Part shown: positions 4,954-26,954 of the stretch, in pieces | Position numbering within the stretch: position 1 is the first letter of the stretch | Layout of the letters: each line of letters begins with the position of its first letter | DNA from: Patellaria atrata CBS 101060 | Taxonomy: Eukaryota | Assembly (NCBI GenBank): GCA_010093705.1 | Contig: MU006100.1 | Span: 718,745-782,744, forward strand | Direction: 5' to 3' | DNA: 64,000 nucleotides | Position numbers and translations under genes: made by a program | Notes under the pieces: generated by a model | What the model was told of the DNA's origin: nothing | Databases searched by the model: none | Seen by the model: the letters and a program-made list of their open reading frames with translations, nothing else

Positions 4954-6630
4954 CTACAGCTTCACCCTCCTGTCTTTCCGTTCCAACGAACACAGCCCGG
5001 TTCTCCGTCCTTTCAATTCCCCCCTCAGTATTTTCCCTGTGGTGTTCTTTGGCAACTGCAGCACCTCCCATACACCACCCCTTAACTTCTTATATCCGCT
5101 TACCATACCATCGATCTCGCTCTGTATCTCCTTGAGAGCCTTTATCCTCTCGTCCTTCGTCCCAAGGCTTGACTTCAGCACTACATAAGCTGTCGGCAGT
5201 TCCGTCACCAGATGCTCGTCCCAAATGGGGCCAACTCCGGCCTCCACGACGTGTCGGTGAGAGTTCACCAGTGTCTCCAGCTCTGCCGGCGCGACTTGAA
5301 AGCCTGAACTCTTGATCAGCTCCTTCGTCCTACCAACTACTTTGAGAATGCCGTTGGTCTCGATTGTGCACACGTCGCCAGTATTATACCAACCGTGTGC
5401 CGGAAACGCGGTGCGGTTCGCCTCCGCATTAAACACGTAACCACGCGTAATATTCGGCCCCCTTAACCACAACTCCCCTGGTCCCCCTTCTGGCGCATCA
5501 TCGATCGAGTTCTCCTTTACCAACCGCGCCTCGAGCCCAGGAAGCAGCCTCATACTCCCCTCCGTACTCGTATCACTAAGACGCTGGTACGCCACGTATC
5601 CCGCAGCCTCCGTCATCCCATAAACTTGCACGAACCGCCACGGCGCCAATTTCTTAAATCGTTCCTGCATCTCCTTCCGCAGCGGCATCCCGCCCACATT
5701 CATGATTCGCGCGGATGAGAAATCGTACCGCTTGGTCACATCCCCGCCCGCGAGCGCAAGGACCACACCAGGAACTCCCTGAAAGTTACTTGCTCGGTTG
5801 CTTTGCACGAGCTGCGCAAAGGTCTCGAGGTTGTATGCTGGCATCGCATGGTGTAGCATCCCAGCCCAAGGGCCCATGAAGATCTGCACAGTGGTCCCGC
5901 CGATATGGGCGAAGGGAGTGTAGGCCACTTGCCGCATGTCGGAGCCGAACTGCGCGGGATCATACGCGTGCAGCTGAAGGCAGTTTGCGACGAAGTTGTA
6001 GTGGGTCAGTTCGACGCCTTTGGGGGTCCCGGTGGTGCCGCTGGAGAGGTGTATCGAGGCGACGCGTTGACGGGTGTCGGGATAATGGGGTATGGGAAGG
6101 CGTATGGGTGCTAGAAAGTCGTCAGGGACGTGCATGTAGCTGCTGTGTTTACTGATCACGGTGATTATTTCGGGATGCGCCCAGGATATGCTTTCGGTGT
6201 GGAGTTCTCTGCTTGCGAGTTCAATTGCCTCAACGATCTTTGGTATGGAGGGCCCATAGGTGAAGATATAGGATGGTCTCGTTACCACGAGTGCGTGACC
6301 TATTTCCGCAGCTTTTAGGGCATAGTTGATTGTACAACCTACGCCGCCTGCCCAGAGTAGCGCGTGGAAGAGTTCGATGTATTCGACACAGTTGGGGAGC
6401 AGAATTGCCCAGTGATCGCCATCTTTCGGTCTATAGTAGTCTACGAGTCCTTTTGCTAATCTACCTGCTCGATCTCTAAGTTCGCCGATTGTGAGACTCC
6501 GGTTTGTGAGATTGTCTTTCGCAATCAGGTGGGATTCCGGAAGGGGAGCGGGACCGGCGGATTGGTGTAACAGTTCGGTGAGGGAAAGATCTTGGGGAAT
6601 TGATATTGGAGCACCTTTGTAGATGTGCAT
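4954..6630 (-). CDS. Acyl-CoA ligase (4-coumarate/phenylacetate-CoA ligase-like), intronless, PTS1-like C-terminus (RRVKL)
   Basis: AMP-binding SSGTTGTPKGV, YGMTE, WYNTGD, GRTKELIKSSGFQVAPAELE and LPKNTTGKILR motifs; 558 aa ORF. Confidence 0.93.
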   Translation of the reverse strand: MHIYKGAPISIPQDLSLTELLHQSAGPAPLPESHLIAKDNLTNRSLTIGELRDRAGRLAKGLVDYYRPKDGDHWAILLPNCVEYIELFHALLWAGGVGCTINYALKAAEIGHALVVTRPSYIFTYGPSIPKIVEAIELASRELHTESISWAHPEIITVISKHSSYMHVPDDFLAPIRLPIPHYPDTRQRVASIHLSSGTTGTPKGVELTHYNFVANCLQLHAYDPAQFGSDMRQVAYTPFAHIGGTTVQIFMGPWAGMLHHAMPAYNLETFAQLVQSNRASNFQGVPGVVLALAGGDVTKRYDFSSARIMNVGGMPLRKEMQERFKKLAPWRFVQVYGMTEAAGYVAYQRLSDTSTEGSMRLLPGLEARLVKENSIDDAPEGGPGELWLRGPNITRGYVFNAEANRTAFPAHGWYNTGDVCTIETNGILKVVGRTKELIKSSGFQVAPAELETLVNSHRHVVEAGVGPIWDEHLVTELPTAYVVLKSSLGTKDERIKALKEIQSEIDGMVSGYKKLRGGVWEVLQLPKNTTGKILRGELKGRRTGLCSLERKDRRVKL

Positions 6631-7054
6631 CTTTGATCATGTCCTGTCTCGGTTTTCCAGAGTCTTTAGCGATGCTAGAAGTATTGAACAAACAACGGAC
6701 CTCCCAAGGGGAGCAGCAAACGACATACTATCATATTGGAACACAACAATGCTCCCCATGGGTAACCCATAGCAGTTTCCGACTCTTCATCCCGCTCAAC
6801 CTTTCTCAACGCGTTCAGTACTAGTACCGGCCCTTATCGGATATGCGGGATATGCACTGTCGTGATAGCTTGGACGCACCTCAGAGATCTGGATCGTCTT
6901 TTCCAGCCTCATCCTTTCGACCGTTTGGAACACACGGCATATGTTTCATGGGGTAATAGCACGTTGAATTGCTACATGAATCGTTCTAGCACCTCGTTAA
7001 TCGCCTTTGGCTCCGTTCCCTATGAACATCTCCCATCTCCTCACTCTTTTGGAA

Positions 7055-7067
7055 ATGATTCATTAGT
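7055..7067. promoter_or_regulatory. Cluster-shared motif ATGATTCATTAGT, copy 1, in the divergent ligase/crotonase promoter
   Basis: Exact 13-mer also present at 17341-17353 and 21442-21454; TGAnTCA core resembles bZIP AP-1/GCN4-type sites. Confidence 0.65.
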
Positions 7068-7343
7068 GCTAAAGCTTCTATAGGGTCGTTGTACTAGTAA
7101 GTAAAAGTACCTTAGTGCATATGTCATGTAGCTTGAAATGCCGAGCATTGGGGGAGTCTATAGGATTTCTCTCTTTCGTGACGGCCCCTAATGAATTGTA
7201 TCTTTATTCTCTTGGAATATAGGAATATTCTCCAAAGAAGAAAAGTACTTTATTTAGGACAGACAAAGTGCAGCACTCCAAAGGCCATCAACGCACTCAG
7301 CAAGATACAATATCTCAAAGATACTCAGAATTTCATCAAGAAT

Positions 7344-8306
7344 ATGGCGAGCCCGCGAACGAGAAATTCAGTTCCTAGCTGGATAGAAAATCCATACCCA
7401 CACGTCGAGCATAGCATTATCTCATTCCCCGCAAAGCATATCCTACTCGTAACGATTAACAGACCAGAATTCAGAAATTGCTTACCAGTAGAAGCAACCA
7501 TAGAACTGGGTGCATTGTGGAAGTGGTACGATGCGGAACCCGAATTGAGATGTGCAGTTTTTACAGGAGTAAGCATATCGATACGTAAACGGATAAAGAG
7601 CAAGAAGTTTAACCGTCATACAGGCAGGTGATAAAGCTTTCTGCGCGGGAATGGACCTAAAACAACGTCTCGACATCATCGATACGAACGACGTTGCATG
7701 GGAATATCCTCAGGGTGGCTTTGGTGGGATGACGAACAGAACGGGCAAGAAGCCGATAATATGCGCTGTCAATGGGCATGCGCATGGTGGTGGGTTTGAA
7801 ATAGTGCTCAACGGTAGGTTGAATTGCGGGATTGAAGCAAAATGGAACGAGACTGATGGATACGAACAGCGGACGTCACCTTCGCCTCTCCCAACGCGAC
7901 CTTTGCTCTTCCCGAAGTCTTACGAGGTGTCGCAGCGCTTGCAGGAGCCTTGCCCCGTGCTATGCACCTCTTTGGGAACCATAGGTGTATGGATCTCATT
8001 CTTACCGGCCGCCGGCTCTCGATCGAAGAAGCTGTACAATGGGGTCTTGTCAAGGAAGTTGTATCGCAGGATAAGCTGGTTGCGAGAGCAGTTGAGTACG
8101 CAATAGAGATAGCAAGCAATGCACCGGACAGCGTGATAATATCCAGGTTAGCGGCTAGAGAGGCATGGGAGACGGGGGTAAGCAGAGCGACGATGAGAGG
8201 ACAGGAGCTGTGGGCGGAGGCCATGCTGAAGAGTAAAAACGCGTCGGAAGGTTTGACAGCGTACAGAGAAAAAAGGGATCCGAATTGGTTTCCGAGCCAC
8301 TTGTAG
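7344..8306 (+). CDS. Enoyl-CoA hydratase/crotonase (SidH/CaiD-like), PTS1 -SHL
   Basis: LLVTINRPEFRNC, AFCAGMDLK, KKPIICAVNGHAHGGGFE and FALPEVLRGVAALAGALPR motifs; two GT-AG introns (~7569-7624, ~7814-7870); ends FPSHL*. Confidence 0.92.
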
Positions 8307-8881
8307 AATTATGTCATCAATATCAAATTGAACTTTTTGATACAAGATGCTACACGTCGTAATTCTACTTCTTCCCGATCGTCGGGATAAAGTACAATCC
8401 CCACAACACTTACAGTCCAGCTAAAGAAGCATGATGCCCTTAAATAGATGTCAAATGGAGAGTCTAATGGTAGAGGGATGATCAAGAACTGAGTGAACAT
8501 ACCGTACGCTTGTATTTTGTGGAAGAATGAAATGAAGCGCGAAATGAACATGAGATTTCAGGATTTTCCTATTTCAACTTATAAACTGTCAATACCATCA
8601 CCCTCATAAATCTTTTTCATCCATCATGTGTTCACAATAATAATCAATACAACTATAATTTAGTTGCATATTTAGGTTTCATACAATTCACCGCGGCAGG
8701 GAGAAACACTCGGCCTACATCCGGTAAACTCATGCCGGACAGGTATAGTACCCTCAGCTGTTTAAGTATAGGACCTCGTAGCTGTGCTCCTTTTTTGACT
8801 TCGTATTTCACAAAGCGCAATTTAATTTTGTTGGAAGATTGTACTGCAAAGATTCTGCCAGATTCCATTTCAACGTTTGGA

Positions 8882-10077
8882 ATGGCGTCTTCAGACATTC
8901 CTGTCAAGAATTCTTCGGGAAGATACGATAACGTTGACTATAAAAAGGCCGTTGGATTCAAGTATCCGCCAATCAAATGTAGCTATCTCCGTAGAGATGT
9001 TTTATTGTTCGTAGGTTGGGATTCGTAGTTTATATTTGTTCGGCTTCAGACTGATCATACATGTTCTCAGGCAAATGCAATCGGGGTAACAAAAGATGAA
9101 CCACATCTACTTTACGAAATGCACCCTAAGTTCGCCGCTTTTCCCACATTCCCCATCAATCTATCCTTTAAACAAACAGACCAAGATGTATTCGATTTCA
9201 TCGCACGAACAGTCACCAGTTCAGTCCCTGGCGTACCCCCTTTCGACCCTCAAAGATCCGTAGACGGCGAACGCGGTATCGAAATCATCAAGCAAATCCC
9301 CGTAGACTCGAAAGGCCTCGATCTTGAAATTCAAAGCAAAGTCATCGGTGTTTACGACAAAGGTACCCGCACCTGGCATCCCATTCTCTAACTCCCGAAC
9401 TCCCGAAACCCGAAATACAAGTTACGCAATCTCCCCTAACAGTAATACTAACCCCTTCCTTCAGGTGGTAATCAAATCCTTGAAGCCGAACACGTCCTCA
9501 TAGATACTCTCACGAACACAATCTACACCAAACTGACCTCCACCGCCTTCGGCATCGGACAAGGCGGCTACGGTGGTCCACGCGGTCCCGCCAAAGTTAC
9601 CGTCAATCCGCCCTCTCGCGCCCCAGATGCCATCCACACATTTAAAACCTCACCGGAGCAAGCATTCCTCTACCGTCTATGCGGTGACTATAACCCTCTG
9701 CATGCTGACGACGAGTGGGGCCGCCGCGCCGGATTTAAAGGTATGATACTGCAGGGGCTAGGCACGTGGAATATCGCAGCCCATGGGATTTTGAAGGTGT
9801 TGGGTGATGGCGACGTGCATAAATTTAAGAGCTTTAATGCGAGATTCAAGAGTGTAGTGTATCCCGGTGATATACTGGAGACGAGAATGTGGAAGGTGGC
9901 CGTCAAGGATGGGTTTGATGAAATTTTTTTTGAGACGGTGGTTAAAGAGGATGGCAGGGTTGCTTTGTAAGTATTTTTCTTTTTGTGTATTAGTTTGATT
10001 GTGAACGCTGATCATGGAGTAGGTCCAATGGTACCTGTACGCTGAAATCGAAGGGCGGATCCAAGAGCAGCTTATAA
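8882..10077 (+). CDS. MaoC/hot-dog fold peroxisomal (R)-specific enoyl-CoA hydratase 2-like protein, C-terminal -SSL
   Basis: Spliced reading gives RDVLLF/ANAIG, RSVDGERGIEI and the hydratase-2 motif YRLCGDYNPLHAD, then ILQGLGTW and FKSVVYPGD; three introns; ends GSKSSL*. Confidence 0.9.
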
Positions 10078-10562
10078 GCCGGAGTACGTCGTCCAAAATG
10101 ATTGTATGGGGATTTAGAGTTCAGAGTCGAAAATCCCCTCATTCCTGTGGAAACTATCATATTGAATTTCTTCGTCATGTCGGGATCTACTTACGTTGAA
10201 CAACTCGTGGAATGCTCCTCCGTGTTGCCCTGCACTGCTAGAGTTTATATCCACTCCCGGCATATAGACGGCCATACCTGTAGACGTCGTTTATTCAAAA
10301 ATCTCGAAATAATGTACAACAAAATGAATTAGACCATTACAAAATGATTTGTATTGCTCGGCCTTTGGTACAGTTGGACGATATCGTTCGGGCGATGTTA
10401 CTGCACGGCTATCACCTGTACTGTACAGTCGACCCATTTGTACAAGTATTATCTACCTATGATACCCATCCATTTTCACAACAAGACTGAAGTTTCGGAG
10501 AAAGCGAAAATTGGTGTAGAATAAAATGATTTTACGGTTGGGACGTAGGAAAATACTCCTGT

Positions 10563-12490
10563 TTATAATCTAGCCATTTGAGCGGATGCAATAGCCTTCT
10601 CTCTCCTCTCTTGCTCCACCCTTACAAACCTCTCGGGCATCTGAACCTCCCTCGCCCTAATAAACTCACCAAAGCTCTTCGCAAACCCATCTAGAATACT
10701 ACTACTACTAACGCCATGCTGCAGTATCCCCTTGACCACAAAGTGAACCGCCCAGAGATTGGGAAACTCACATCGCTCGACCGTGTATCTATCGTCCCAG
10801 TCGTCGCCTAGAATTTCAATGAGCTTTTGTGATGTCAGAAAAGTCTGCAGCCACGGCCACGCAGCGGCATCCCGCACCCAGAGCCCAACATTTGCGTTAC
10901 CTCCTTTGTCGCCGGAGCGGGCAAAGACGAGGTCGCCGAGGGGTCGAGTCACAGTTCTGCCGTACTGTTGCCGTTGGTCTATGGAGACTTGGGGTTCGTA
11001 AGACTCCTGCTTTGGGACCGTGGATGAGCATTCCGTATCCTTCTTTCCCGGTACGGGGATTGTCTTTTCAGCTTCGCCGGTTCCGGAGAGTAGATTGGCG
11101 GAGGTTGAAACCTTCGACTGCTTTAGAAGCCCTGGGAAGTAGCTCACGAACATCTTGGGCTCGACGGTGCGCCAGTCCATGCCGAGATGCAAGCCACAGT
11201 ATCCTTGCATGCCGTTATAAAAGATTGCACGTTTGAAGGCGGCGATAGCTTCTTTCTTAGGAGTTTGAACGAACAGCCGGATCTGCATGGTCGACTCCTT
11301 TTGGGAATTGGGGTTCGGTTTAGGGAATCCGTACGCTTCAATGCTGATGGTGGAGAAGTCCTTTGGGTCAAGCTCGCGAAGAACTTGGGACTTCATCATT
11401 TCAAATTTCTCATAGCATTGGAGACCAGCGACGTAGGCAGAGAGCTCCGCGTGCCAACCGCCTAATAGGCAGACCGCGAGCTTCATAGTGGGAGGTGGTG
11501 TGAGGCCTTTTATGCCGGATAGACGGACGCGGTCTTTGCCTAGTTGTTCTAGCTGCGCTCCGTCTATTTTTGCAACAACGTCGGGGTTGAGATATATTGG
11601 CCCTTGGATCTCGTATAACAATTGAGCTTTTGTGGTGTCTACAGTTACCGCTCCGTTGCTACCCTCCGGTTTTGTGATGAAAGTAACACCGTCTGAGGCA
11701 ATTTCCGCTATAGGCCACCCGGACCGATATGGCTTTTCAATCTCAAGGAAGCCGCAATAGTTACCCCCTGTCACGTACGCACCGCATTCGATTAAATGGC
11801 CGGCCATGAGAGAGCCTGCCATGGCGTCTAAATCCAAAGGGCCCCATTTGTGCCACCACGTAGCAAGTCCGGTGACAGGAGACGCATCACAGCATCTACC
11901 ACATATAACAATCTCTAAAGAGTTGTAAGCAGATATTTAAAGGGGCGCATCTAGGGGCAACAATACATACGTGCTCCAGCTTTCAAAGCCGTCACAATGC
12001 CAGCATGTCCCGTATACACATTTGCAGCAAGGATTTCGTCTCCTCTAACCTCCAAGGCAGTTCCTTTTCGGTCTAAATGTTCGATCTCACCGAAACCTCC
12101 TTCTCTAACGACCCTGGTAACGTCGTCGCCGCCTACCCACGCCACTTTCACGTCTCTTATCCCTAGACTATGAAAATAATCGTTCACTTTCCTTGCTAGG
12201 CCTCGGGGGTTTAGTGCTCCACCATCATGAACAACCTTGATACCCTTCTTCGCAACAAGTCTGGCCGCATCCCCATTATGCCAGGCCAGCTGCTCCAGGA
12301 AGTTTGGTTCATAACCGAGATCGGGGTTGGTGGTAAGTTCGATGGCCTTCCAGGCGATGTTGAACTCGGCGAGATAATCCGCGGTGATAGCATCGACGTT
12401 GCCATCCCGAGCGAGGCGGTAGACTTGATCAATGCCATCATTTATGGCACCTGAGCTGTTTCCAATGCGGATAGGTCTTCGGGGAGACAT
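10563..12490 (-). CDS. AtuA / DUF1446 family protein (acyclic terpene utilisation-like), copy 1, PTS1 -ARL
   Basis: RPIRIGNSSG, ADYLAE, GALNPRGLA, GRCCDAS, GHLIECGAYVTGGNY, QLLYEIQGPIYLNPDV, ARSGDKGGNANVG and LDGFAKSFGEF motifs; one intron (~11914-11970). Confidence 0.92.
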
Positions 12491-13493
12491 TTTCAATATT
12501 CTTCTGTTGCACATGTACGGTACAAGCTCTGGTTTTTCGCATCACGATGCTCTCCAGTTTACAGATCGAACAACTAACAGTATTACATGTGAGGTCATAG
12601 GACTTTCCAGACGATCCAACCCCGCACTATCGCTCCCGAACGATAGGACCCTGCGAATCGATATGCTTCATCATCTGGAGAAGTTATCCAGAGAGTCTGA
12701 GTCTGGTTCACAGATTTGCTCCAGGAGCCTGGTGAGTAGTGGTGACACTTATCGGGGCGAGTTCGAGAACTCACAACACCGCCATCATGCACACGACATG
12801 ACTCAGGATCTGGGACTCGGTGACTGTTGAGCGATTCCATTATTGTATGCACTATGCAGTGTCGTGTTAGAGCTGCGATGTCGTGTTAGGGGTTGAAAGT
12901 AGGAAAAGATGGTGGGTGGAAGTGCAATGTCGTGTTAGAGTTCTCTTGGCTTTTCAGCCACCAGATGTTACGCACGTGACCCAGATCATCCCCGACAGTT
13001 CCCTGCTATCGATGATTCATCATTCTACTTTAGGTATGGTTAGCCTCATTAGGGTAAAGTGCAAGCAACAGCCACCCGCACTGCCACAAGTAAATTCTTA
13101 CTTTCACCTCGTTATTTGATACATTATTTCCACGTATCCCAAGCTAAGTAGGACTGCAGGACTACTGTAAACAGAACGGGAACTATGCTTCCACCTACCG
13201 GTATTACTAGTTGTATGTTTCCTGATCCGAGGTTCGTACTGTGTGTTTTCCCTTTTCCCATTTGATAGTTCCAGTTTCTGAGCGAGGTCAAACTTCTTTT
13301 CCAACCTTTCATTCTTTTGACTCCTATAGTCTGAATATCATATTGAGTTCTATACTTATGTACATCTACTATCATCACCTGAAATACATTCATGGAACAT
13401 TGGTACACAACAGCATCACCAGAATACTCCCATCGTAATTCCACCAAAGCCACCTCTACATCTCCCTCATCTCGTCCTTTCATCTCTTCCAAC

Positions 13494-14330
13494 ATGTCAT
13501 ACCCAACGACCACCCCACCCCCGCCAACTCCAACCTTCCTCAAACTCTCCTACCCGGCCCCTCGCGTGCTCCTCGCAACCATGTCTCGCGAAAAAGACCT
13601 CAACTGCATGAATACGGCGGCGCAATGGGAAATGGACAGCGTCTGGAAGTGGCTCGACGTGGAGCCCAACCTCTCCGTCGCCGTCATCACTGGGGCCGGA
13701 AAGAAAGCTTTCTCCGCAGGCGCCGACTTAAAAGAGTGGAACAACTCCATGGCCGACGACGCAGATCCAAAAAACCGGCTAGGTAATGCACCGGCGTTTA
13801 AGCCGCTGAGCAGACGCCTTGGGAAGAAGCCAGTGATCGCGGCTGTCAATGGCCTAGCGATGGGTGGCGGGACCGAGTTTGCGGTCAATTGCGATTTGGT
13901 GATTGCGTCTGAGACGGCCTATTTCGGGTTGCCCGAAGTTAAGAGGGGGGTTGCTCCCATTGGCGGCGCTTTACCAAGGCTCATCCGCACGATTGGGCTG
14001 CAGCGTGCGTCTGAGTTTGCACTGACAGGGCGGAACGTTACTGCACAAGAAGCGCTGGAGTGGGGATTTGTGAATAAAGTTGTACCGCAGGACAAGGTGG
14101 TAGGGGAAGCTGTCAAGTATGCCACTATGATTGCCGTAAATAGTCCTGATGCGATCATTTGTACCCGAGCAGGGTTGAGGCAAGGTTGGGAAACAGCGGC
14201 AGTCGAGAGGGCGGTAGAGGTCACGCTTGAGAGGGAGTTTGCAGAGTTGCAGAGGGGCGAGAATATAGTGGAGGGCTTGAAAGCTTTTACGGAGAAGAGA
14301 GAGCCAAAATGGAAAGCATCAAGATTATAA
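13494..14330 (+). CDS. Enoyl-CoA hydratase/crotonase (SidH/CaiD-like), intronless, PTS1 -SRL
   Basis: AFSAGADLKEW, KKPVIAAVNGLAMGGGTE and FGLPEVKRGVAPIGGALPRL motifs; ends KASRL*. Confidence 0.94.
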   Translation: MSYPTTTPPPPTPTFLKLSYPAPRVLLATMSREKDLNCMNTAAQWEMDSVWKWLDVEPNLSVAVITGAGKKAFSAGADLKEWNNSMADDADPKNRLGNAPAFKPLSRRLGKKPVIAAVNGLAMGGGTEFAVNCDLVIASETAYFGLPEVKRGVAPIGGALPRLIRTIGLQRASEFALTGRNVTAQEALEWGFVNKVVPQDKVVGEAVKYATMIAVNSPDAIICTRAGLRQGWETAAVERAVEVTLEREFAELQRGENIVEGLKAFTEKREPKWKASRL

Positions 14331-14438
14331 GCTTGTTGCGGGTTATTAGTATGGATTTATTATAGCCTTATATCTATCATACTTAATCACTTCACAATAT
14401 TAAGCAATCCAGATTTGATCTTTCATTTTACATAACTT

Positions 14439-16649
14439 TTACAACTTACCCTTCCTCGCCTTCGCCAACCTTGCTGGTAACATCCTCTTTAGCACCTTCC
14501 CCGAGCCAGTTTTCGGAAGACTTCCAATTACAACCGCACCGCCCCTCAATCTCTTATAGGGGGCAACCTTAGAATCCACCATATCCCTCAGTTTACCCTC
14601 CACATCCTCACCCCTACCTTTCCTCATCATCCCCTCTTCTGTTAACACCACATAGGCAATTGGGACCTCAGAAACCTCGTCCTCATCCCAAAGCGCACAC
14701 ACCGCTGCCTCATCAACAAGCCCACTCGCCGCAAGGATCGCCTCTAACTCCGCCGGTGCCACTTGGAAACCCTTATACTTTATCAGCTCCTTCTTGCGCT
14801 CCGTTAGATACCAGAATCCCTGATCGTCACACCTCACGACATCCCCTGTGCGCATCCAGCCTTGATGAAAAGTCTCCTCAGTCGATTTAGGGTCGTTCAT
14901 ATACCTCCGAAAAACAGTGGGGCCGCGAATGAGCATCTCTCCCTGCTCACCATGCGCAACGTCATTCATATCGTCATCGACAATACGTGCTTCCACATTC
15001 GCGAAGAGCCGACCGACGCTGCCGACGCGCTGCCACTGGTCCGGACGAAGAGTCGCGACATTAGTCTCCGTCATGCCGTAGCCCTGAAAGATTGGAGCAT
15101 TGGAGAGCATTTTCTGAAGGGACTCTATTATTTCAGGGGGTAAGACGGCGCCGGAGCAAATGATGTATTTAATATCGCACAGAGTGGTTAGGTCTAAGGT
15201 TTGAGCTTTAGTGAGCGCAACGGCGATGCTGGGAAGGATCCGGAGAGTGTTGGCACGTATTTGGGCGGAGAGGGAAACAAGTGCGGCGAGGCTGTAGCGT
15301 TTCATCACCATGGTGTAGTAGCCTAAGTAGGCGCCCATGAGGACGACGCTGTTGAGCCCTGTGGGAGATTAGTCGAAATGAATACTTAATAACAAGGGAT
15401 AGAGTTTCTGGTTACCGTATATGTGGCATAGAGGTGCGAAAAAGACGCTGCGGCATGAAGAGTTGTAGAATATAGGATCAGTGGACCTAATACCAGCGAG
15501 GGACGCGATAAGGTTATGATGACTTAATTCCACCCCTTTAGGTTTACCACTCGTGCCGGAGCTGAAACATACCGCTGCTGTGCAGTCTCTGTTATCTCGA
15601 GAGGAGAGATCGAAGGGTGACAGGTAACCATTATGGTGAAAGAGATCGTCAAACTTTCTTGTCTGCGTCGAAACTGATGTGAGCTATTTCTTTTCTAATT
15701 TGCATTCACCAAAGTTCATTCTCTTGAAAATATACATAAGTTGGACACGCGTAGTGAGATACAGTGCCAAATCATAGCTTTTTAAGGCACGGAAATACAT
15801 CTACTATCACACATGTTTGGATGATTGGAAAAGTTCGTGGAGCAATAACTCAAATAATAAAGAGTACATATAATGCTCACCTTGGTGCCTCTGGAATCTC
15901 CGACAGTGACCAACTTGATCGAACCCAAGGTTGAAGAGGATCCAAAGGAACAAATGGCGGACTCAACGCTCTTGAGGCTGGTATCATCTACAAAAGTTAA
16001 CTTGGGATGAGATATCTCCAAATAATGTTCGATTTCTTCAGAAGTGCTTAGAGGGTTGAAAAGGCTGTCCTGTATTAGTTACTCTGCATGCTGAGAGACC
16101 CTGCACTTGCGGACGTACGCAGCTGTTGCCCCAGCCCAGATGGCTACATTAATAAGAAGCACTACATTAACCTTCATATGGATATCTGTTAGCAAGCTGT
16201 TAAGGTTTCATCTGCTTCTTGAACCACTTTCAGGATTACGTTGTGCTATATGACGTTATGGAGGTGGAGAAAGCTGAACTCAAAGAAACCCTAAATAGCC
16301 CCCGGAAAGCAAATAACATATGGCTACGCATTATTCTTGATAGCATATTCAGTGAAGGAGGATGCCCCTATCGCAGAGGGACAAGCGTATCAGGAAGACC
16401 TACTGAGTTGAAAGCGCAAATGCCGACAACATCGCCCTCCTGAATTCCAAACAGATATTTCAAACCCCACGCCCCTTTTGCGGCCTCCTTCCGGAGACTA
16501 CCGTACGTGAGCTTTCGACCGGTCCAGTCATCTTCGAAAATAATCTTGTCATTCGCCACAAAATCTGGATTGTATATCTCTAAATACTGTGAGATTGATA
16601 CATCCGTTGGCACATGCGGAGGAGGGTAATATGATCGATAGACTCTCAT
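14439..16649 (-). CDS. Acyl-CoA ligase (4CL-like), copy 2, multi-exon, PTS1-like C-terminus (RKGKL)
   Basis: Exons encode LTYGSLRKEA, FSSGTSGKPKGVELSHHNL, QGYGMTE, GWMRTGD, KELIKYKGFQVAPAELE and PKTGSGKVLKR; about four introns. Confidence 0.9.
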
Positions 16650-17337
16650 GATGATCTAGCCGAGACCGTGTTTCAAGAATAACGTAGGATCCAGCCCTAG
16701 AGTTTGCTTTTCAACGACGGGCGAAGAGGGTGTGGGGAAACTCCTTAAAGAAACGAGGTTCAGCTTCGGAATGCTCTGACCACGTCGCTGGGAGATCTGC
16801 ATAGGGCCCTAAAACGTGGTCGACAACCGTTCAACATCCTTTGAAGCGGTATTTGAGCCCCACTTTTACTTCTGGCCCCGGAAATAATAGGAGTACCCGG
16901 AGCTCTTACAACCTGCTCGATTCATTAAATCTTGTCCGTTTATATTGAGAAGTCTGAGGCTCGGATTATTCGATACTGGGACTCTGTATTCGCATAGAAG
17001 AGAAAGAACCGATAGTAGCTAAATCTGGTAATCCGGGGTGAACTGTCGCAGTATACGCGAAACGATAGTTTGGAGAGAGAGAGAGAGCCCGTGGAGGCTT
17101 ACGATTGAGCCTGACCGCATGATACCGAAGGACAGTAAGATAATACTGTATTAAATTAGCTGCAGGAAATTAAGGTTCACTAGGATCTCAACTACTTAGC
17201 TGTTAATTCCTATTTTCACTCTCATCCATACCTACGGTTCACCTTGGGACCGACATAGCGGAGCGGAATATCTAAGAAGATATTTAGTCAGGGTTCCGCT
17301 CTGCAAAGTCATGGTCAGTATCATTTGTAGTTAGCGG

Positions 17338-17353
17338 CTGATGATTCATTAGT
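17338..17353. promoter_or_regulatory. Cluster-shared motif (CTG)ATGATTCATTAGT, copy 2, in the divergent ligase/MFS promoter
   Basis: Exact 13-mer at 17341-17353; CTGATGATTCATTAG is one mismatch from the perfect palindrome. Confidence 0.65.
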
Positions 17354-17829
17354 TTTCATAGTTGAACAGATTGAATATGGAGGGTCAAGAGCAGCAGAAA
17401 GTTTTCCGAGAGACGACGGGATCACCTTAGATCATTCCATTCAGGTTGCCCCCGCACTTGTCCCCTTGAAACGCCAGAAACCCCAGATGGCCTCCACAAA
17501 ACGCTAAACATCCCTTCCACATATCCATTGCCTTAGTCTATTTCCCCAAGGATTGTCACAATCTTGGAACCGTCTCGCTTCCCGTTGAGGACGCCGATCA
17601 TCCAGTCTATCTCGCGTAAGGCCTAAAGCAGTATTTTGAGATCAGAGATAAAATGGTCGTCCATATCCATATCCAGAGGGACTGATTTCTCAACTCCTTC
17701 TTCCCCCTTGAACTGGAAACTTGCTCATCTGTAAGGGTCCTCCGAAAGAGACCCTCTGTTCACTTGACGGGAAGTTCGGATCACCAGTTGTTATAGACTT
17801 GATACGCCCCATCTTTTCTCTAGTCAACG

Positions 17830-19700
17830 ATGACTTCTCTCGAACACGAAAACAAGCCCGGAGACCGTATCGAGATGGTTGAAGACATTAAATCTGCCGA
17901 TTCCGATCGAATGTCAGTTCGAGATGAAGCTTTAGGAGACGACCTACCCCCAGGTTATTTCCGCAGCTTACAGTTCATTGGAACTATTGCCGGGTTTTCT
18001 CTTGCTCAAATTAGCGCCTATATTTTCCTTCTTTTACCCACCAATCTTTTCCCCATCATTAACGCAGATATTGGTAAGTTGGGAGGTCCGTACATGGAGT
18101 GCGACTGTGACTGACACTGCATAGGACCAAGTCCATACATCAGCTGGGTCAATATTGCCAGAACGCTTGCTCTTGCCTTTACATACACTGTCTTAGGTCG
18201 TCTCTCTGATCTCTTGTAAGTACCCTCACATCTTGAACTGAGACGCACGGGGAACCATTAGGCTAACCGGAATGAAGCGGACGACGATGGTTCTTTATCG
18301 GTGGCAACGTCATCGCCTTAATCGGGATCATAGTCGGAGCTACTGCCGAAAATGTGAATACGCTTATCGTGTCTGCTGCAATCTACGGTTTAGGAGAAAC
18401 TGTACAGTTGTCGTTTAACGTCGCTGTTGGAGAGCTGGTTCCAAACAAGTATCGACCGACGATCCTCTCTTTCATCTTCTTGACCAGCGCCCCGATTGCA
18501 ACTTTTGGCCCCATTATTGCTAGGAAGATGGCCGCGAACCCTAACGTAGGCTGGCGCTGGACCTACTGGATCAATGTCATTGTAGTTGGCGTTGCTATCA
18601 TCCTCTTGTTCATTTTCTACCACCCGCCAACCTTCGATATGCTTCACGAGAGAAAGTCTAAGAGGCAACAGCTCAAAGAGCTCGATTATATCGGCTTGTT
18701 CCTCTGGACCGCAGGACTTACTATTTTCCTCGTTGGAATCAGCGTTGGTGGCGGTATTCACCCCTGGAAATCAGCAACGACTCTCTGTACTATTGTCGTG
18801 GGCGCCATCATCTTGATTGTTCTGTTCTTTTATGAGGGGTTTGCAAAACCCAAATACCCCGCGATTCCGGTCCAGTTCTTCTTGAACAGAGGATTTGTTG
18901 CTCTTGTTTGTTGTGCTACTGTGGCATCTATGTTCTACTATAGTGCAGTCCTTTTGTGGCCTCAACAAGTCACTGCTCTATACACCAAGGATCCCGACTA
19001 CGCCGGATGGCTCTCAACAACTGTTTCGGCCAGTACCGCCCTCGGACAAGTCTGTGCTGCGGGTATTGTCAAATGGGGTGGAAATGTCAAATTTTGGATC
19101 ATCGGTAGTGCCGTTTTGATGGTGGCGTTCGTGACATCCTGTGCATCTCTTACCCCTGACACCAAAAACATGGGCATCGCTTTTACCATTATTGGTCCGT
19201 TCTTCGTTGGTTTCATCGAACTTGTTTCTTTGGCTCTTGCTCCGCTTTTCTGCAAGCCCGAAGATATTGGTCTCGCATCGGGTCTTCTTGCTTCAATCCG
19301 GTCTGCTGGTGGCTCAATCGCTGTTGCTGTCTACACGACGATTTTGCGAAATCGTCTTGCTACCACCATTCCCAACACGATCGGTCCAGCTCTCGTTCAG
19401 GCAGGCGTCAATGCAACTGAGCTTCCTGCAGTATTGACTGCAGTCCGAACAGGCACGCTTGCGAAATATCCTGGTCTTACTGATGGCATTTCAGCAGCAG
19501 TTGCATCATCTTCTCCCAGCGCATACGCGCAAGCATTCAAGACCGTATATCTTGCTAGTGCAGGTTTTGGTGCCATTGCGATTATTGGAAGTTTGTTTGC
19601 AAAGGATGCTCAGAAACACCTGACAAGCAAGGTTGAACGAAGAATGCATGGTAAGGGAATTGGCGGAAACATCAAGGGAGACGTGAAAGAAACAGTGTAA
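17830..19700 (+). CDS. MFS transporter (TRI12/fungal trichothecene efflux pump-like)
   Basis: ALGDDLPPGYFRS, LGRLSDL/GRRWFFIGGN, GELVPNKYR, WRWTYWI and YHPPTFDMLH motifs; many hydrophobic segments; two 5' introns. Confidence 0.9.
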
Positions 19701-20183
19701 AGGAGAGGGTGGGATAAACGGGAATTGGTCAAGCATACCGAAGTACTGTTGCTGGGAGATAGCTCTGCATGATATGAATCTAAGTTTGTCGTATGATCGA
19801 ACTGCGTAGAGATAAAAATCTCGAAAGAGTAATTGCGCGTCTATTTTGCATTCTTAGTTTTAGCGTGATAGGTATTATACGCATCCCTTCTATCACCATT
19901 CATTCCTTAAGTGGCTGATCAGTAGTTGGATATAATGGTTAGGGGGAAGGGCGTACAATTGTGTGTAGGCAACTTTCCTCCAATCGGCTTGATAAAGTTT
20001 GTTTTGGTTCTGCCTTTGCTTATCCTTTCACGCCAGGAACTAAGGACTGATGGCCCACTTTATGATAACCGGTCAGGCATGACGGTGCAGATGCGGGATC
20101 AAAATTCTCTTATAATCTCTAGATTCTCGCAAAAGCTGTTGAGTCGATTGCTTCTCCCACTTCATCACCTAATCTGTTTCGAA

Positions 20184-20945
20184 ATGGCGCCCATCCTCGT
20201 CATAGGACATCTTACCACAAGCACTGCGGAAGCCCGGGAAAAGGTAAACTATGGAATAATCATATTAGGTATCTTGACTTACCAAGTAATAAAGATTATA
20301 AATGCTCTGAGCCAGATTATGGAATATGCGAAAGCGAAGGAGCCAGGTGTGACCAAGTACTGTATCACCGTTCCCCAAGACACAGAAGACGCTACATCCG
20401 TATTCGTTATTGAAGAGTAAAAGCTGAGCGACTCTGAGGTCTTCTCCGTTCTGACTGTAGTCTGCAGATACGCGGATCAAGCAGCCTTCGACTCTCACAT
20501 GGCCCCGACAGTGCTCGCTCCTATTCTAGATATCTTTCAATCTGAACCAGGCCTACTCAAAAGTCCTCCTGCAGTTCAAACTCTAGAACCAGTCCATGGT
20601 TTCACAAGAGCCGAAATAAAGGATGTCGACCCCTTCATCATTATCGGAAATCTCACATATAAAAATGGGACAATCCCCCAAGCACTTGAAGGCTGGAAGA
20701 GTGTCGCGACAGCAACGGAAAATAACGAAACTGGGACATTCGTCTATTCAGTTGCAAAGGATAAGGTCGACCCAGCAGTATTGGTAACTGTTGAGGTTTA
20801 CCAAGACGAGAGATACTTATGGGATGTGCACGCGCCGAGCGACGCTGTCCAATCTAATAAAGAGAAGCACGGTGGAATCAGAACGGGTCTGCAGCACACA
20901 AAGCTGAGAAGGGTGGCGGGTTATCTGCATAAGGTGTTATCTTGA
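20184..20945 (+). CDS. Tandem ABM (antibiotic biosynthesis monooxygenase / dimeric alpha-beta barrel) domain protein
   Basis: Two repeats of the pattern EPG/ETG-x2-Y...V-x-E-x-Y-x-D...H (AKEPGVTKYC..FVIEE/YADQAAFDSHM and NETGTFVYS..VEVYQDERYLWDVH); two introns. Confidence 0.8.
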
Positions 20946-21438
20946 AGAGAGTCTTGTATAACTCCTTCTGTTAAAGCTGTTCTGGTTCACTGTAAATCGA
21001 GCTGTCCGTTTGAGCTGTAAAGACGGGTGCACGAGTTTAATCAATTTCGTGATTAGAATGGATTCCTCGTAGAACTATGCGGTGTGTGCATAGTATCTGA
21101 GTTTGACGCGTAAACAAGTGGCATATATACCCAGAAAGATTTATATTGATCATTCCCAAATGATCGATATGTATTGTGAGTTTGAGCAGTTATCTGAGTG
21201 AGAAGAGAAACATATGAAACCTTAGGGGAGTTTGCAGGGAGGTTCCTAAAAGGTCAGGACAGTGCGGAACACTTTGCCCTCTACCTCAAGTTTCCACTGT
21301 AGATTTGCGGATATGATACAAACACCGATCAGACGCAGTTTTATGCCCATCTAGATTTTAGAAGGCAGTCGACTATACGCTATCAGCCTTGCTACTGAGG
21401 ACGGATTGTCTAGAGAATCCGCGACGGCTGTAGTATGC

Positions 21439-21454
21439 CTAATGATTCATTAGT
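21439..21454. promoter_or_regulatory. Perfect palindrome CTAATGA-T-TCATTAG (shared motif copy 3) upstream of the second AtuA gene
   Basis: CTAATGA and TCATTAG are reverse complements around a 1-bp spacer; contains the shared 13-mer at 21442-21454. Confidence 0.7.
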
Positions 21455-21791
21455 CTGGACCAATATGGAGATTTGTGATGTTGCCCCTCCATACCCCACA
21501 ATCTGTAGCGTCCCTGTGGCATGCAATGGTGTATTTGACTATATATGGGATATCAACAACCGGTGTTGACACATTATCTCAATGAAATTGCCTGTTACTT
21601 GGAATCATTAACTGGCTAGAAGGCCTAGATATGCCGCTTCCCGACAAGAAATATTGTTCGGTCCAGGGAAGAAACCTTCAGGGAAAATATAAGTATCCTT
21701 ATGTTGCTGCACATCACTTGGCTTGATTTCATATCCCCTTTAATCAGTTTCTCTCGCCTATATTTGACCTTGAAGACCCTTCTTGACCATA

Positions 21792-23807
21792 ATGGCGCCC
21801 ATGAGCCTTCACAGCAGCACAAACAGTGCAACCATCAATGGTGCTAATGGAACGCCGAAGAGGCCTATCAAGATTGCGGGATGTTCAGGTGGTAGGTGCT
21901 GACAAGTCAACTTTTCGATGAACAAATTCCGAATGAGAGTCCCTAGGTGTGTACGATCGAAAGCGAGCCATGCACGACATGGCAAAGAACGAAGAGGTCG
22001 ACGTAATCACGGGTGACTGGATGAGCGAATGCAACATGACCCTCCGTGGGTCAGACAAACTAGACAAGTTAAACAAGCGTCAAACGTCATTAGTCGGCGC
22101 CGCCTACGAACCATACTTTTTGGAAGAAATTGACCCTGCTATTCCATGGTTAGCAAAGAAAGGAGTCAAGGTCTGCGTGAACGCAGGTGCTAGCGACGTT
22201 GAGGGTCTCGCGGAGGAAGTAATCAAGCTGATCAAGAAACATAACGTTGACCTGAAGGTTGGATACGTCACTGGCGATGACGTAACGGATGCAATGTTTG
22301 CATTGTACAACAAAGGTTCGCGCCAGTCTATCTTTGTGGTTTGTTCACATACTGACAAGGAGAAGGGGAGAAGTTCCCTAATCTGCCACAGGACAAGAAC
22401 ATCCAGGATTGGGGCTTCGATCCAATCTGCGCTCAGTGTTATCTCGGCGGTACCGGTATCGCTGAGTGCTTTGCGGGTGGAGCAGACATCGTGGTCTGCG
22501 GTCGAGTAGCTGATGCTGCCTGCGTGATGGGTCCAGCCATGTGGTGGCACGGTTGGACTCGAGAAAACATCCAGGAGCTGGGTTCAACCCTCATGATCGG
22601 TCACATCATCGAGTGCAGCACATATGCAACCGGGGGTTACTATAGTGGATTCAAAGATCTTGGTGTAAACGATACCGATATGGGTTATCCGATTGCAGCC
22701 ATAGATCATAAAGGTGAGGCCGTCATAACCATGGAGAAGGGCAAGCATGGGCTTGTGAGCCCAGCTACAGTCGCATCCCAGCTGCTTTATGAGATCCAAG
22801 GTCCCCTGTATTACAACTCAGACGTTACCGCTTCAATCGAGGATGTGAAATTGGTTCAAGTTGGCGAGAATGCTGTCCATGTTTCGGGGATCAAAGGTCT
22901 TCCACCACCCACCACAACAAAGGTCGGTATCACTGCCAAGGGTGGCTACCAGGCGGAATTCCATTTCTACTTGACTGGTCTAGACATCGAAGAAAAAGCG
23001 AAAATGGTTGAGCGCCAAACCCGGGCAGCTATGGGCAAATACGTCGATGAGTTTACGTGCCTCAAGTTTCAGGTCGCAGGTACGGTTTCACAGGATCCAC
23101 AATCGCAGGACGAAGCTACTGTGGACATGAGAATTTTTGCCCAAACCAAAAACGCAGACCTTCTCTCGGCAAATGCCATAATGGATAGTGACCGTGGCTC
23201 CTTCGCACGCTTTTGCATTGAAAATCTGTTGCAAGGTTACCCAGGTTCCACTATGGCACCAGATATGCGAACCGCGATGGGACGGCCATTTTTTGAATAC
23301 TGGGTCACCTTGATGCCCCAGTCTTTCGTAAAAGAACAGGCCCATCTACCAGATAGATCTGTTGTAGATATCCCTACACCTACCGTAATGCGCGAGTACG
23401 AACGCCAACAGCCGACTGGCGATACTGTTGATCCCGTGGATCTCTCGGAATTTGGCCCAACAACCCGCGCTCCTCTGGGCTACGTTGTCATGGGACGTTC
23501 TGGAGATAAGTCATCGAACTGCAACCTTGGCCTATTCGTTCGACATGCGGATGAGTGGGATTGGTTTCGAACGCTCATGAGCGTCAACAAAGTCCGACAA
23601 TTACTAGGTAAAGATGACAAGGGAAAGAAAATCGACCGGTTTGAGCTTCCAAACATCTACGGAGTTCATTTCCTGTTGCGTGACCACCTCGACCGCGGTT
23701 TCAACGCTACAAGCGGTTTCGACAGCTTGGGAAAGAATTGCTGCGAATTTATTAGGTCAAGATGGGTCGATATCCCGAACAAGTTCTTAGAGCGTGGGAG
23801 AGTCTGA
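21792..23807 (+). CDS. AtuA / DUF1446 family protein, copy 2, no PTS1 (ends RGRV)
   Basis: RPIKIAGCSG, ITGDWMSE, CGRVADA, GHIIECSTYATGGYY, QLLYEIQGPLYYNSDV, GRSGDKSSNCNLG and DSLGKNCCEF motifs; two introns. Confidence 0.92.
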
Positions 23808-24387
23808 ATAATTTATCCCCCTTTGGTGCTTCTCACTACTATTTCGGAGAAAGGGGTAAGGGTGCATTGTCTAATTGCTTCAATATTTGTTTCGTTGAGC
23901 AGTCCCGAGTACTATACATTGTCTACACAGCTAAGTCGGATGTCCTTTCGGTATTGAGACTATAGTTGGCTAGGAGACCTATCAGAGAAGTAACATGGAA
24001 TGAGATACCACACTTACTATATACCTGAGATGAGACGCGTGTTACTCTATTTGATCGCGTACTTCTCCTCGAAACTGTAGCCTGTAGAACACATGAGTAA
24101 ATAATAATTGCCTTCAGAGTCTCATCCGATGCGTATCTTGATGATCCCATTGATTCGACAGCTATAGAAGCGGAGAGTTGGTGGAGAAGTAGTTCTAGTT
24201 CGGTTTCCTCTTTTCATGAACTCGCCAAGACCTCGGCTAGAACTAAACCTAACTTGGCCATACGCCTCCACCTCCCCTTTACCATCTCATCCCATCACCT
24301 CCCGTCCGGCTTTGCATCCAGAAATATTTGCAATCCCGCTCTCTCTTAGATATCCCTGTGCAATGAGTAATTAGCCCCTATCATATC

Positions 24388-25574
24388 ATGTCCTCCACAG
24401 GATCCACTCCGACCCCCGAACAGCAACAAAACCACAGCGATGATACGTCAAAGGAAGCAGCTGCGCGCACCAACCTGGAGAAGAAGCGAGCTCGGGACAG
24501 GAAGTCGCAGCGTGCAATGCGTGATAGGACTCGCTGGCAAATTCATACGCTGACTGAGCAGGTGACTGAGCTCACGCATGCCTTAAATCTCCAGGCCAGT
24601 GAGAAGGCTGAACTCATGACGCAGTTGTTGACGGTGAGTGAGGAAAATGATCACTTGAGGATTCAAAAAGCGGCGTTGCAGTTAAGATTATTGGCCGCAG
24701 GGGAGGGTGATAGTGAAGTAGCGGAGAATGGGGAGAGGATACCTAAAACATACGAGCAGGTTCCCTGGAATACGGGTGCCTGTTGCATGTCCGATCAAAT
24801 CTTGCAGAGAATTGTAGACGCGAGGCATGAGTATCTGAAAGGGACGCCTCCAGGAGAATCTGAGCCTTTTCCTGAGAGACTAGACTTCAGTAGCTTGTTT
24901 GACACCAATCTGAATCCGCATAGGAGTATGTACGAACCTGGACATGTCATAGGAGATATTGTAAGATCATATAAAGAGATCGAGACTCTCCCAAAGCAGG
25001 TAGCCGTATATTACTGCATGTACATGTTGTTGAAGGTACGTACCTTATAATCTGACCGGCGGAAGCTGTTATGCATTAAAAACCAATACATTTGACTCCT
25101 TTCTACAACCGTGCAGACGGATACTGACGTTACATTATGCAGTGGCTTGTCTTGCGTTCAGAACTCTCATACAAACGTCTTCCTGTTTGGCTACGACCAG
25201 AACCCGCGCAGTTGGAGGTAGGACATTCCGCATGGATAGACCGCCTTCCATGGTGAGTTCTGAATATAGGGAGCAGAATTGGTGATCTTTAACGACTCTT
25301 TAGGCCTAAAATTAGGACATACGTTATTGAAAATAACATCCCCTTCGATGACTTCGCAGCGGCCTATTCCTCCTCTTTCAATGTAAAATGGGACTATGAC
25401 CCCTCACATGTCCTCATATCGGTTCCAGGGCCAACACTAGGAACACCACAAATGATTATTAACCCTATCTATGAGGAGCATGTTAGACAGCTCTCGAACT
25501 GGACGGTTGGTCCTAACTTTCGACGTCGCTTTCCTGAGATGGCCAGAATCGTCGACGAATACACTCGCGACTAG
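24388..25574 (+). CDS. bZIP transcription factor with C-terminal DUF3425-type domain
   Basis: Basic region EKKRARDRKSQRAMRDRT followed by leucine heptads. Later exons give LPVWLRPEPAQLEVGHSAWIDRLPW/PKIR and INPIYEEHVRQLSNWTVG, typical of DUF3425. Two introns. Confidence 0.88.
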
Positions 25575-26954
25575 CACTTATTGTCAGATGCGAACTGGAA
25601 TGAATGGGAACACCCAACTTCCGCCTTTCTCAATCAATCATACACCATGCTTCTGGTCTGCATCTTAGGAGCGGTCTCGACTCTATTATTTATATTACTC
25701 AGGTTGTACAGTACAAGTTGACCCATCGATATGAATGCGTAGACTTTCGAAAACCCCCAGGTTATCCGGAACAAGCAGCTGGTATAGGATAAGCAGAGGT
25801 AGGGTGTAAAAGGGGACGGATTATGCAAAACTATGTTCTGAACGGGTTGACTCGCAGATGTACATCAGCTTCGATTTTACAACAGAAGGAGCTCTTGGGT
25901 ATGTCGAACTCTATGAGCAGACACTGAATATTTAACAAGCGTTCGGGGGCCCAGAGAATGTCAACCGCGAAAAAGGTGATAGTCTATAAGGTGGATGTTT
26001 CATGAGCTGGATCCTCACTTGCTGGTAGTATTAAATGGTCTAACATGGGGTCGGAAGAACGAATAGATTTGTACGTCGTATTCAACGTCGCAGAGTCCGG
26101 AATTTTCCAGGAGCCTTTCATGTACGTCGACTTTAACCAACGATCCCGTACAAACGCGAGATCGGATTTCCATACAAATGTACCTATTAGAATTGGGTAC
26201 AGCTATACCAAGTGGGATGGCTGCAACAATAGATACGTATAGGGTGACAAGCCCGGCACATAACTCGGCTTATCCATATCATTCGACCGCTCCATACATG
26301 TACGAAAACGCTTCTACAGTACCCGATTACAACACAGGAGTTCCCCTTGGGTATGGCTGCGCTGAGTTCACAGTGCCGGACATATTTGATCCTGTATGTA
26401 ATGAATAGGTTTTAAGGTAGGAGGAGCTTGTGATACCGCACTACGATAGAGACGTTTGGATGCATACGAGATGGCTTACAAACCTTAACAAATTCCGGGT
26501 TGTTGTTTGCAAATCAGTTAAACAGTGAAGATCATTCCTGGGACTTATATTCATCGCAACCGGATTTGGCTTTGAATCATGATCATCATAAAACAGTAAA
26601 AAATGACTAATTCAGGGTTCATCTTGGTTGGATAATTTAACTCTCTTTCACATGATCTAGATAATGTTTGACGATCTTTCGCAGTTATCTTCACAGCCTT
26701 CGGCGCGCGGAGTATGCGTGACCAACCTTTTCGTCACAGTACTCAAACCTCATGTGCACTCATTTAATCAAGATGTCTCTCTTGTTCTTCACTAAGATTT
26801 ACTTTCTATGACTAGGTATTTAGCTCCGCAAGGCAGCTTTCGCTATAATTTCTCTGCACAAAACTTCTCCTCACTTTCTTTAACAAGCCCTCCACAACCT
26901 CAGAAATTCTAGCGGTCGCTTAAGCTTAAGCAAACACACGCCCATATTCTCTGA

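Follow-up and report, generated by a model that had tools for sequence, protein, structure and literature searches.

A palindromic promoter motif as candidate operator of a bZIP-DUF3425 regulator in an AtuA gene cluster of Patellaria atrata

Introduction

Several fungal basic leucine zipper (bZIP) systems are close to the one considered here. The Pap1/Yap1 and HapX subfamily has the basic region signature NxxAQxxFR and recognizes TTAC half-sites, and HapX needs a CCAAT box in addition, its composite site with the CCAAT-binding complex (CBC) being a CSAAT box with the half-site 11-23 bp downstream (PMC7144946). The element of Gcn4, CpcA and AP-1 is TGA(C/G)TCA (PMC7144946 for Gcn4). Filamentous fungi commonly have bZIP-DUF3425 proteins, which are listed as uncharacterised (PMC9223689), and one such protein, the activator A7370 of Curvularia lunata, binds ACGGCTGAC, as determined by electrophoretic mobility shift assay and chromatin immunoprecipitation (PMC13113314). 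Here we compare with these systems a 13-bp word, ATGATTCATTAGT, and the longer palindrome around it, motif A, in the promoters of a gene cluster encoding AtuA-family proteins and a bZIP-DUF3425 protein. The cluster lies in a 64,000-nt stretch of the Patellaria atrata CBS 101060 genome (contig MU006100.1, positions 718,745 to 782,744), which we call the window and over which positions are numbered. We consider it probable, from sequence comparisons, that a homodimer of the cluster bZIP-DUF3425 protein binds motif A.

AflR, TOXE and XanC each regulate a particular fungal gene cluster and have a promoter motif private to it. For AtuA-family proteins, the closest fungal study is that of VdAtuA3 (VDAG_02121) of Verticillium dahliae, a protein reported to be mitochondrial and to give no citronellol phenotype; the atu homologues were described there as unclustered, and the parts of that paper that were covered mention neither a neighbouring bZIP gene nor a motif (PMC13399572). 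We found no description of motif A or of the cluster in the literature, within which subscription papers were poorly covered.

Results

Motif A in the cluster promoters

A preliminary description of the window had reported three identical 13-mers and a shorter palindrome, and all four were found. The 13-mer is exact at 7055-7067, 17341-17353, and 21442-21454; positions 21439-21453 form CTAATGATTCATTAG, a dyad with a single unpaired central base; and the shorter palindrome, GATGATTCATC, is present at 13011-13021. According to the gene models of this analysis, all four sites are intergenic, with one site in each of three divergent promoters and one in the AtuA2 promoter, at 285-696 bp from the start codons (the genes are listed further below):

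7052..7067, no strand assigned: motif A site 1, centre at 7059, 429 bp to the ligase 1 ATG and 285 bp to the crotonase 1 ATG
13011..13021, no strand assigned: motif A site 2, weaker, with the core only and without the CTAA flank, in the AtuA1/crotonase 2 divergent promoter
17338..17353, no strand assigned: motif A site 3, centre at 17345, about 696 bp to the ligase 2 ATG and 485 bp to the MFS ATG
21439..21454, no strand assigned: motif A site 4, the full 15-bp dyad, its centre 346 bp 5' of the AtuA2 ATG; kept in two orthologous promoters

Public reads (two runs of one sample, probably DNA) match the window letter for letter from 6000 to 25900; these runs are possibly the source of the assembly and are not counted as independent confirmation. 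Directly 5' of sites 3 and 4 (17334-17342 and 21424-21432) is the sequence CGGCTG, which resembles the A7370 motif, possibly by chance.

In the whole 28.7-Mb P. atrata assembly there are three exact copies of the 13-mer, all within a 14.4-kb span and all in promoters of the cluster, in agreement with the earlier description, in which no copy had been noticed elsewhere; the counts from this genome search are possibly lower bounds. The Markov expectation is 0.8-1.6 copies per genome and 0.002-0.004 per window. Because the word was chosen after it had been seen, we also asked for three copies of any 13-mer at all. There was no such 13-mer in 5000 shuffles of the cluster intergenic DNA (5980 bases), consistent with the earlier statement that three non-coding copies are very unlikely by chance, and of 300 shuffled versions of the complete window 10 contained one; in the real window ATGATTCATTAGT is the sole 13-mer with three copies.

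That the sites are chance occurrences or remnants of promoter duplication, without function, we consider very improbable, and this explanation is largely refuted. It draws on the whole-window shuffles and on the fact that looser motif patterns occur across the genome at background level (10 matches, with 10-12 expected), although one loose-pattern listing was perhaps incomplete, having seven of 12 distinct sites on a single contig. (A reversed-pattern control was not composition-matched and was left unused.) Against it stand the intergenic shuffles, the conservation, described below, in two lineages whose divergence is saturated, and the flanks of the four sites, which are unrelated (9-20 identities in 51 positions), so that the sites are neither a duplicated promoter block nor the dispersed repeat that the preliminary description had named as a possible refutation. 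The repeat family spans just 16 nt.

The refined motif and its genome-wide distribution

Motif A was refined to RCTAATGA-W-TCAY, the best form being a 15-17 bp dyad. Among ten strong sites TGA is invariant in 20/20 half-sites, followed outward by A at -4 (19/20), A at -5 (14/20), T at -6 (16/20), and C at -7 (14/20), and the central base is A or T in every one. The TGAnTCA-type palindrome proposed earlier is thus right as to its TGA half-sites and wrong as to its free central base.

These frequencies bear on the possible recognition of the sites by a global bZIP factor (CpcA/Gcn4, Yap1/NapA, or HapX with the CBC) or by a homeodomain dimer on TAAT, which we regard as improbable. The outer half, CTAATGA, does resemble a homeodomain site; however, TGA is invariant whereas the positions forming TAAT vary, as A at -5 shows. 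Similarly, the core resembles TGACTCA, and HapX is described as using TGAT half-sites (PMC7144946). Yet the version of the motif with a C/G centre has only three genomic matches, none of them in the cluster, and a CSAAT box 11-23 bp upstream was found at 0/12 sites, the two CSAAT sequences present being downstream of the centre. A global factor would also be expected to have many more than seven genomic sites. We therefore rejected the HapX:CBC composite site for its missing CSAAT spacing, the Gcn4/CpcA/AP-1 element for its C/G centre (one weak variant, in locus L038, has a C centre), and the Yap1/Pap1 response element because the half-sites have TGA and not TTA (20/20) and because of the DRKSQxAMR signature of the bZIP protein. 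SreA-type (iron), FarA-type, and Gcn4-type elements were not enriched in four promoters examined for them.

The pattern RCTAATGAWTCAY has seven genomic sites: three in the cluster, one on C7, one on C1, and two within coding genes. Five of the seven are in promoters of regulon genes. Rarity in the genome had been named as a check that could refute the motif, and both this pattern and the 13-mer are rare. Motif A is enriched in the cluster promoters and rare elsewhere, like the site of a cluster-specific regulator. We took as chance occurrences the sites in coding regions and those close to a Zn2Cys6 gene (C23) and to a sterol-isomerase-like gene (C1).

The site at C7:1105049 (L014:5049-5065) is strong and lies 463 bp 5' of an unlinked TRI12-type transporter gene. 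Since it was discovered by the motif search, its shuffle value (0/5000) is circular and was not counted; we count the site only for its gene family and for an extra RCG flank, which matches 4/4 strong orthologous sites. Downstream at this locus is a gene that reads as a putative Zn-cluster factor.

The C1 site, in a divergent AtuA/TRI12 promoter, was found by testing four unlinked AtuA paralogues, of which it marks the only one with a motif A site (18/5000 shuffles). The surrounding genes form a satellite cluster:

C1:2069400-2076100 (L057, L058): CMD-like gene, SDR, AtuA3, and TRI12-type MFS transporter, with both motif A and a second motif (motif B, below)

The CMD-like label is our own, the gene having no Pfam match. 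The satellite AtuA3 is 72-76%, the SDR 55%, and the CMD-like protein 64% identical to the products of genes flanking the bZIP gene in the orthologous loci L038 and L039. AtuA3 orthologue tags adjoin the bZIP gene in Cosmosporella, Neonectria ditissima, and Fusarium zealandicum, and are three to four tags from it in two Verticillium albo-atrum assemblies. The satellite is thus a displaced piece of a wider cluster and has a motif A site, which points to a factor that acts in trans and is associated with the cluster, although the AtuA3 promoter of L039 is without a site. Genes for an isochorismatase, an amidase, and an NCS1 permease adjoin the satellite and are probably a separate unit. The genome has six AtuA-family genes in all, and DUF3425 matches at seven places (nine rows).

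The comparisons point to motif A as a real regulon site. The preliminary description had overlooked its A/T centre, the two unlinked sites, and motif B.

Conservation in orthologous loci

A metagenome scan with an alignment of the first exon of the bZIP gene gave seven loci, of which four were used: no cluster promoter is present in the short loci L040 and L041 (1.1-1.2 kb), and L037 duplicates L036, so that the two count as one. Promoters were scored with a matrix trained on the four window sites only, with 5000 shuffles per promoter. In L036 (bZIP about 50% and AtuA2 80% identical to the window proteins) a 17-bp dyad, GCTAATGATTCATTAGC, lies 437 bp 5' of AtuA2, and this promoter scored 23.3 bits (0/5000 shuffles). 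In L039, where the bZIP protein is 38% identical, there are sites 333 bp 5' of AtuA2 (18.2 bits, 2/5000) and in the ABM/bZIP divergent promoter (18.4 bits, 0/5000). Three of ten orthologous promoters tested were therefore positive, among them the AtuA2 promoter in 2/2 independent intact orthologues, where its distance from the ATG (437 and 333 bp) can be set beside the 346 bp of the window.

The identity of the three AtuA2 genes at fourfold-degenerate sites is 37/111, 30/105, and 38/113 (29-34%), so neutral sequence is saturated. Motif A is the top blastn-short match in 3/3 pairs of AtuA2 promoters, which are otherwise unalignable. Conservation in orthologous promoters had been proposed earlier as a check, and the AtuA2 promoters of two lineages carry the motif. 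Motif A is thus conserved across saturated divergence, but not in every promoter of every cluster version.

Two further sites of L036 (61 and 118), one of them strong and the other weaker, lie beyond the 3' end of ligase 2 and could be assigned to no gene within the 10 kb covered. In the place of the MFS gene, between ligase 2 and ABM, this locus has an unrelated open reading frame (ORF) without Pfam match (L036:3169-4887), beside which the ligase 2 promoter has no site. L035 has an intact bZIP gene, a frameshifted AtuA2 remnant (L035:9365-9594), and no strong site, an apparent case of cluster loss; a gene that by its translation is of NTPase/repeat type replaces the cluster. A site-like sequence of 13.7 bits lies inside the bZIP intron of L039 (L039:10824-10840), about 700 bp 5' of AtuA3.

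The candidate binder

The gene at 24388 had been named as a bZIP-DUF3425 gene, and its product proves to fit this description. Exons 2 and 3 match DUF3425 (PF11905) at 30.7 and 34.7 bits, above the cut-off of 27.1, and the basic region is Pap1-like, with profile matches to Pap1 (1gd2, E 5e-5) and to 7aw7 (E 3.5e-4), presumably HapX, as its closest solved relatives; the Pfam bZIP_1 match is below cut-off (E 0.013). The structural model (mean pLDDT 86.7) has a single helix from residue 20 to 105, and so predicts the basic region and continuous zipper helix of a bZIP protein. The C-terminal domain (residues ~120-341) is confidently folded in the model, and a structure comparison of the model found no clear match for it.

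The invariant Asn of bZIP basic regions (N-x7-R) is replaced by Asp in 37/37 aligned orthologues, and the Arg is kept. Compared with NxxAQxxFR, the signature DRKSQxAMR has Asn changed to Asp and Phe to Met, with Gln and Arg retained, and specificity is thus not transferable from the Yap factors. The pattern RARDR[KR][SA]QxAMRxR is present in 88 of the 89 homologues matched by a search pattern, among 110 examined, and such near-invariance is what a single site common to all members of the group would lead one to expect.

Genomic neighbourhoods show that the bZIP gene has been inherited together with both AtuA2 and AtuA3. AtuA2 and bZIP are direct neighbours by accession or tag in Paraconiothyrium, Massarina, Paraphaeosphaeria sporulosa, and Kalmusia, and are apparently on the same contig in eight of the 11 species common to both homologue lists; in Rhizodiscina they are 353 accessions apart. 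In the window an imperfect site-like sequence, CAATGAGTAATTAGC, is located at 24359-24375, about 20 bp 5' of the bZIP start codon. It scores 12.2 bits by a wider matrix and is not significant by the window-only matrix; autoregulation of the bZIP gene is possible.

Motif B and the paralogous factors

A second motif was defined from four copies in the window:

6854..6868, plus strand: motif B copy GCRNTGTCGTGWTAG
12856-12870, 12875-12889, and 12924-12938, plus strand: three motif B copies

Five exact copies exist in the genome, these four and one in the C1 satellite (C1:2073931-2073945). Motif B ends in a TAG flank that is common to motif A, and the shared flank makes a heterodimer or a second binding mode possible, which at this point is speculation. 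In the orthologous loci, whose covered parts did not extend to the counterparts of the promoters richest in motif B, no copy with its flanks turned up near a cluster gene.

This second motif is relevant to the question of which protein reads motif A. It could be functional but bound by a paralogous bZIP-DUF3425 protein, by a heterodimer including the cluster bZIP, or by an unlinked regulator, the cluster bZIP then acting on motif B or elsewhere. Consistent with this, DUF3425 occurs at seven genomic places, one paralogue having a similar D-containing basic region; motif B is equally restricted to the regulon (5/5 exact copies); and the published bZIP-DUF3425 protein acts from outside its target cluster (PMC13113314). 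We nevertheless judge such a binder rather unlikely, based on the fact that motif A is kept in orthologous clusters holding the cluster bZIP, and is missing from 3/4 unlinked AtuA promoters and from the 3-kb loci around the six other DUF3425 genes (best 10.1 bits), while motif B with its flanks was not seen near orthologous cluster genes in the loci covered. As a matter of general knowledge, moreover, a dyad centred on TGA-N-TCA has the geometry of a bZIP homodimer.

Genes of the cluster and its surroundings

The Pfam content of the cluster comprises two acyl-CoA ligases, two crotonases, a MaoC protein, two AtuA proteins, a TRI12-family transporter, an ABM protein, and DUF3425:

4954..6630, minus strand: acyl-CoA ligase 1 (AMP-binding, by Pfam), ends in -VKL
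7344..8306, plus strand: crotonase 1 (ECH_1), three exons, ends in -SHL
8882..10078, plus strand: MaoC-type dehydratase, promoter without motif A site, 3' end read from sequence
10563..12490, minus strand: AtuA1 (PF07287 + PF23544), ends in -ARL
13494..14330, plus strand: crotonase 2 (ECH_1), start codon tentative, ends in -SRL
14439..16649, minus strand: acyl-CoA ligase 2, ends in -GKL
17830..19700, plus strand: TRI12-family MFS transporter, second intron border imprecise
20184..20945, plus strand: ABM-domain protein (Pfam E 5.9e-6), promoter without motif A site
21792..23807, plus strand: AtuA2 (PF07287 + PF23544), three exons
24388..25574, plus strand: bZIP-DUF3425, exons 24388-25035, 25143-25252, and 25304-25574, basic region KRARDRKSQRAMRDR

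The cluster is without a backbone synthase and looks catabolic. Peroxisomal targeting follows a known C-terminal consensus, to which the termini SHL, ARL, and SRL of three enzymes, and VKL and GKL of two, are a fit.

Elsewhere in the window, a Gcn4-type sequence, ATGAGTCAT, at 47703-47711 is just 3' of an ORF (45898-47553) that by eye is carnitine acetyltransferase-like, and is unrelated to the cluster. Genes whose translations resemble a sterol dehydrogenase, two P450s, a membrane protein, and an ABC transporter occupy 52895-64000, possibly another metabolic cluster.

Discussion

We propose that motif A is the operator of the cluster bZIP-DUF3425 protein and that it controls a small regulon, which would consist of the divergent cluster promoters, the displaced satellite (AtuA3, SDR, CMD-like gene, and MFS), and one more TRI12-type transporter. 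Within the homodimer, each basic helix would recognize one TGA half-site together with its outer CTAA flank. The protein may be an activator, and its folded C-terminal domain may sense the substrate or its CoA ester; these two steps are weaker. The regulon would serve the import of an organic acid, its activation to the CoA ester, and partly peroxisomal steps resembling beta-oxidation.

Several observations weigh against this proposal. A matrix scan found no motif A site in the MaoC, ABM, and bZIP promoters of the window. Seven of the ten orthologous promoters are likewise without a site (those of L036 ligase 2, ABM, and bZIP; of AtuA3 in L039 and L038; of L038 bZIP; and the L035 upstream region), and the footprint comes from two independent lineages only, L036 and L037 being identical. 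L038 has the bZIP gene and no strong site; its AtuA3 promoter has a variant of the outer half-site with a C centre, at a level reached in 115/300 shuffles locus-wide and 31/2000 within the promoter, which is not significant locus-wide and no more than suggestive. Paralogous DUF3425 genes exist, at least one of which also has Asp at the Asn position, and motif B leaves room for another factor, or another mode of binding, at these promoters. Finally, the only measured bZIP-DUF3425 site that we found, ACGGCTGAC, is asymmetric and unlike motif A (PMC13113314).

A use of the regulon in terpene degradation is not supported, given that the probable V. dahliae AtuA3 orthologue has no citronellol phenotype and is described as mitochondrial (PMC13399572). 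Judged by tag spacing, VDAG_02121 is probably this orthologue: it is nine locus tags from VDAG_02112, an AtuA2 orthologue, and the corresponding AtuA3-AtuA2 spacing in V. albo-atrum is ten tags. More tentatively, and as a picture that we would not yet call likely, a bZIP subfamily with Asp for Asn may read an A/T-centred 15-17 bp dyad, sense a ligand as a one-component system by way of a C-terminal domain without solved relative, and, with the second motif as a possible heterodimer site, run an AtuA regulon, conserved and in part scattered, in Dothideomycetes and Sordariomycetes for the catabolism of a wood- or plant-derived acid.

For one subfamily, whose basic region is unusual, motif A provides a specific, footprint-supported candidate site. 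The motif also delimits a regulon centred on AtuA/DUF1446 proteins of fungi, among which VdAtuA3 has a published phenotype without a pathway. As such, it is a handle for finding the role of the cluster, and a reporter carrying the dyad could reveal the inducer. If the Asp-for-Asn sensor picture is true, a motif A reporter would lead to the compound and would give the AtuA proteins of fungi their first biochemical role.

Among the known systems, Pap1, Yap1, and HapX are relatives in the basic region, with Gln and Arg kept, and differ in that the window site has TGA half-sites, an A/T centre, conserved outer flanks, and no CCAAT partner. The Gcn4/CpcA/AP-1 element shares the overlapping TGA half-sites around one central base, and the A at -4 that motif A has in 19/20 half-sites; motif A, unlike it, has an A/T centre and a dyad of 15-17 bp, and is in few promoters only. 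A7370 is likened to the cluster protein by its domain architecture; its site is an asymmetric 9-mer and its gene is described as being outside the target cluster (PMC13113314). The Pseudomonas atu cluster and V. dahliae VdAtuA3 are similar in having AtuA-family proteins. AflR, TOXE, and XanC correspond in the regulator gene at the cluster edge and in a motif common to the cluster promoters, but they run biosynthetic clusters, whereas the Patellaria cluster, having no backbone synthase, looks catabolic. The motif, the specificity of the subfamily, and the regulon are apparently undescribed in the literature covered, and the underlying logic, in which the regulator of a cluster has a palindrome to itself, is familiar.

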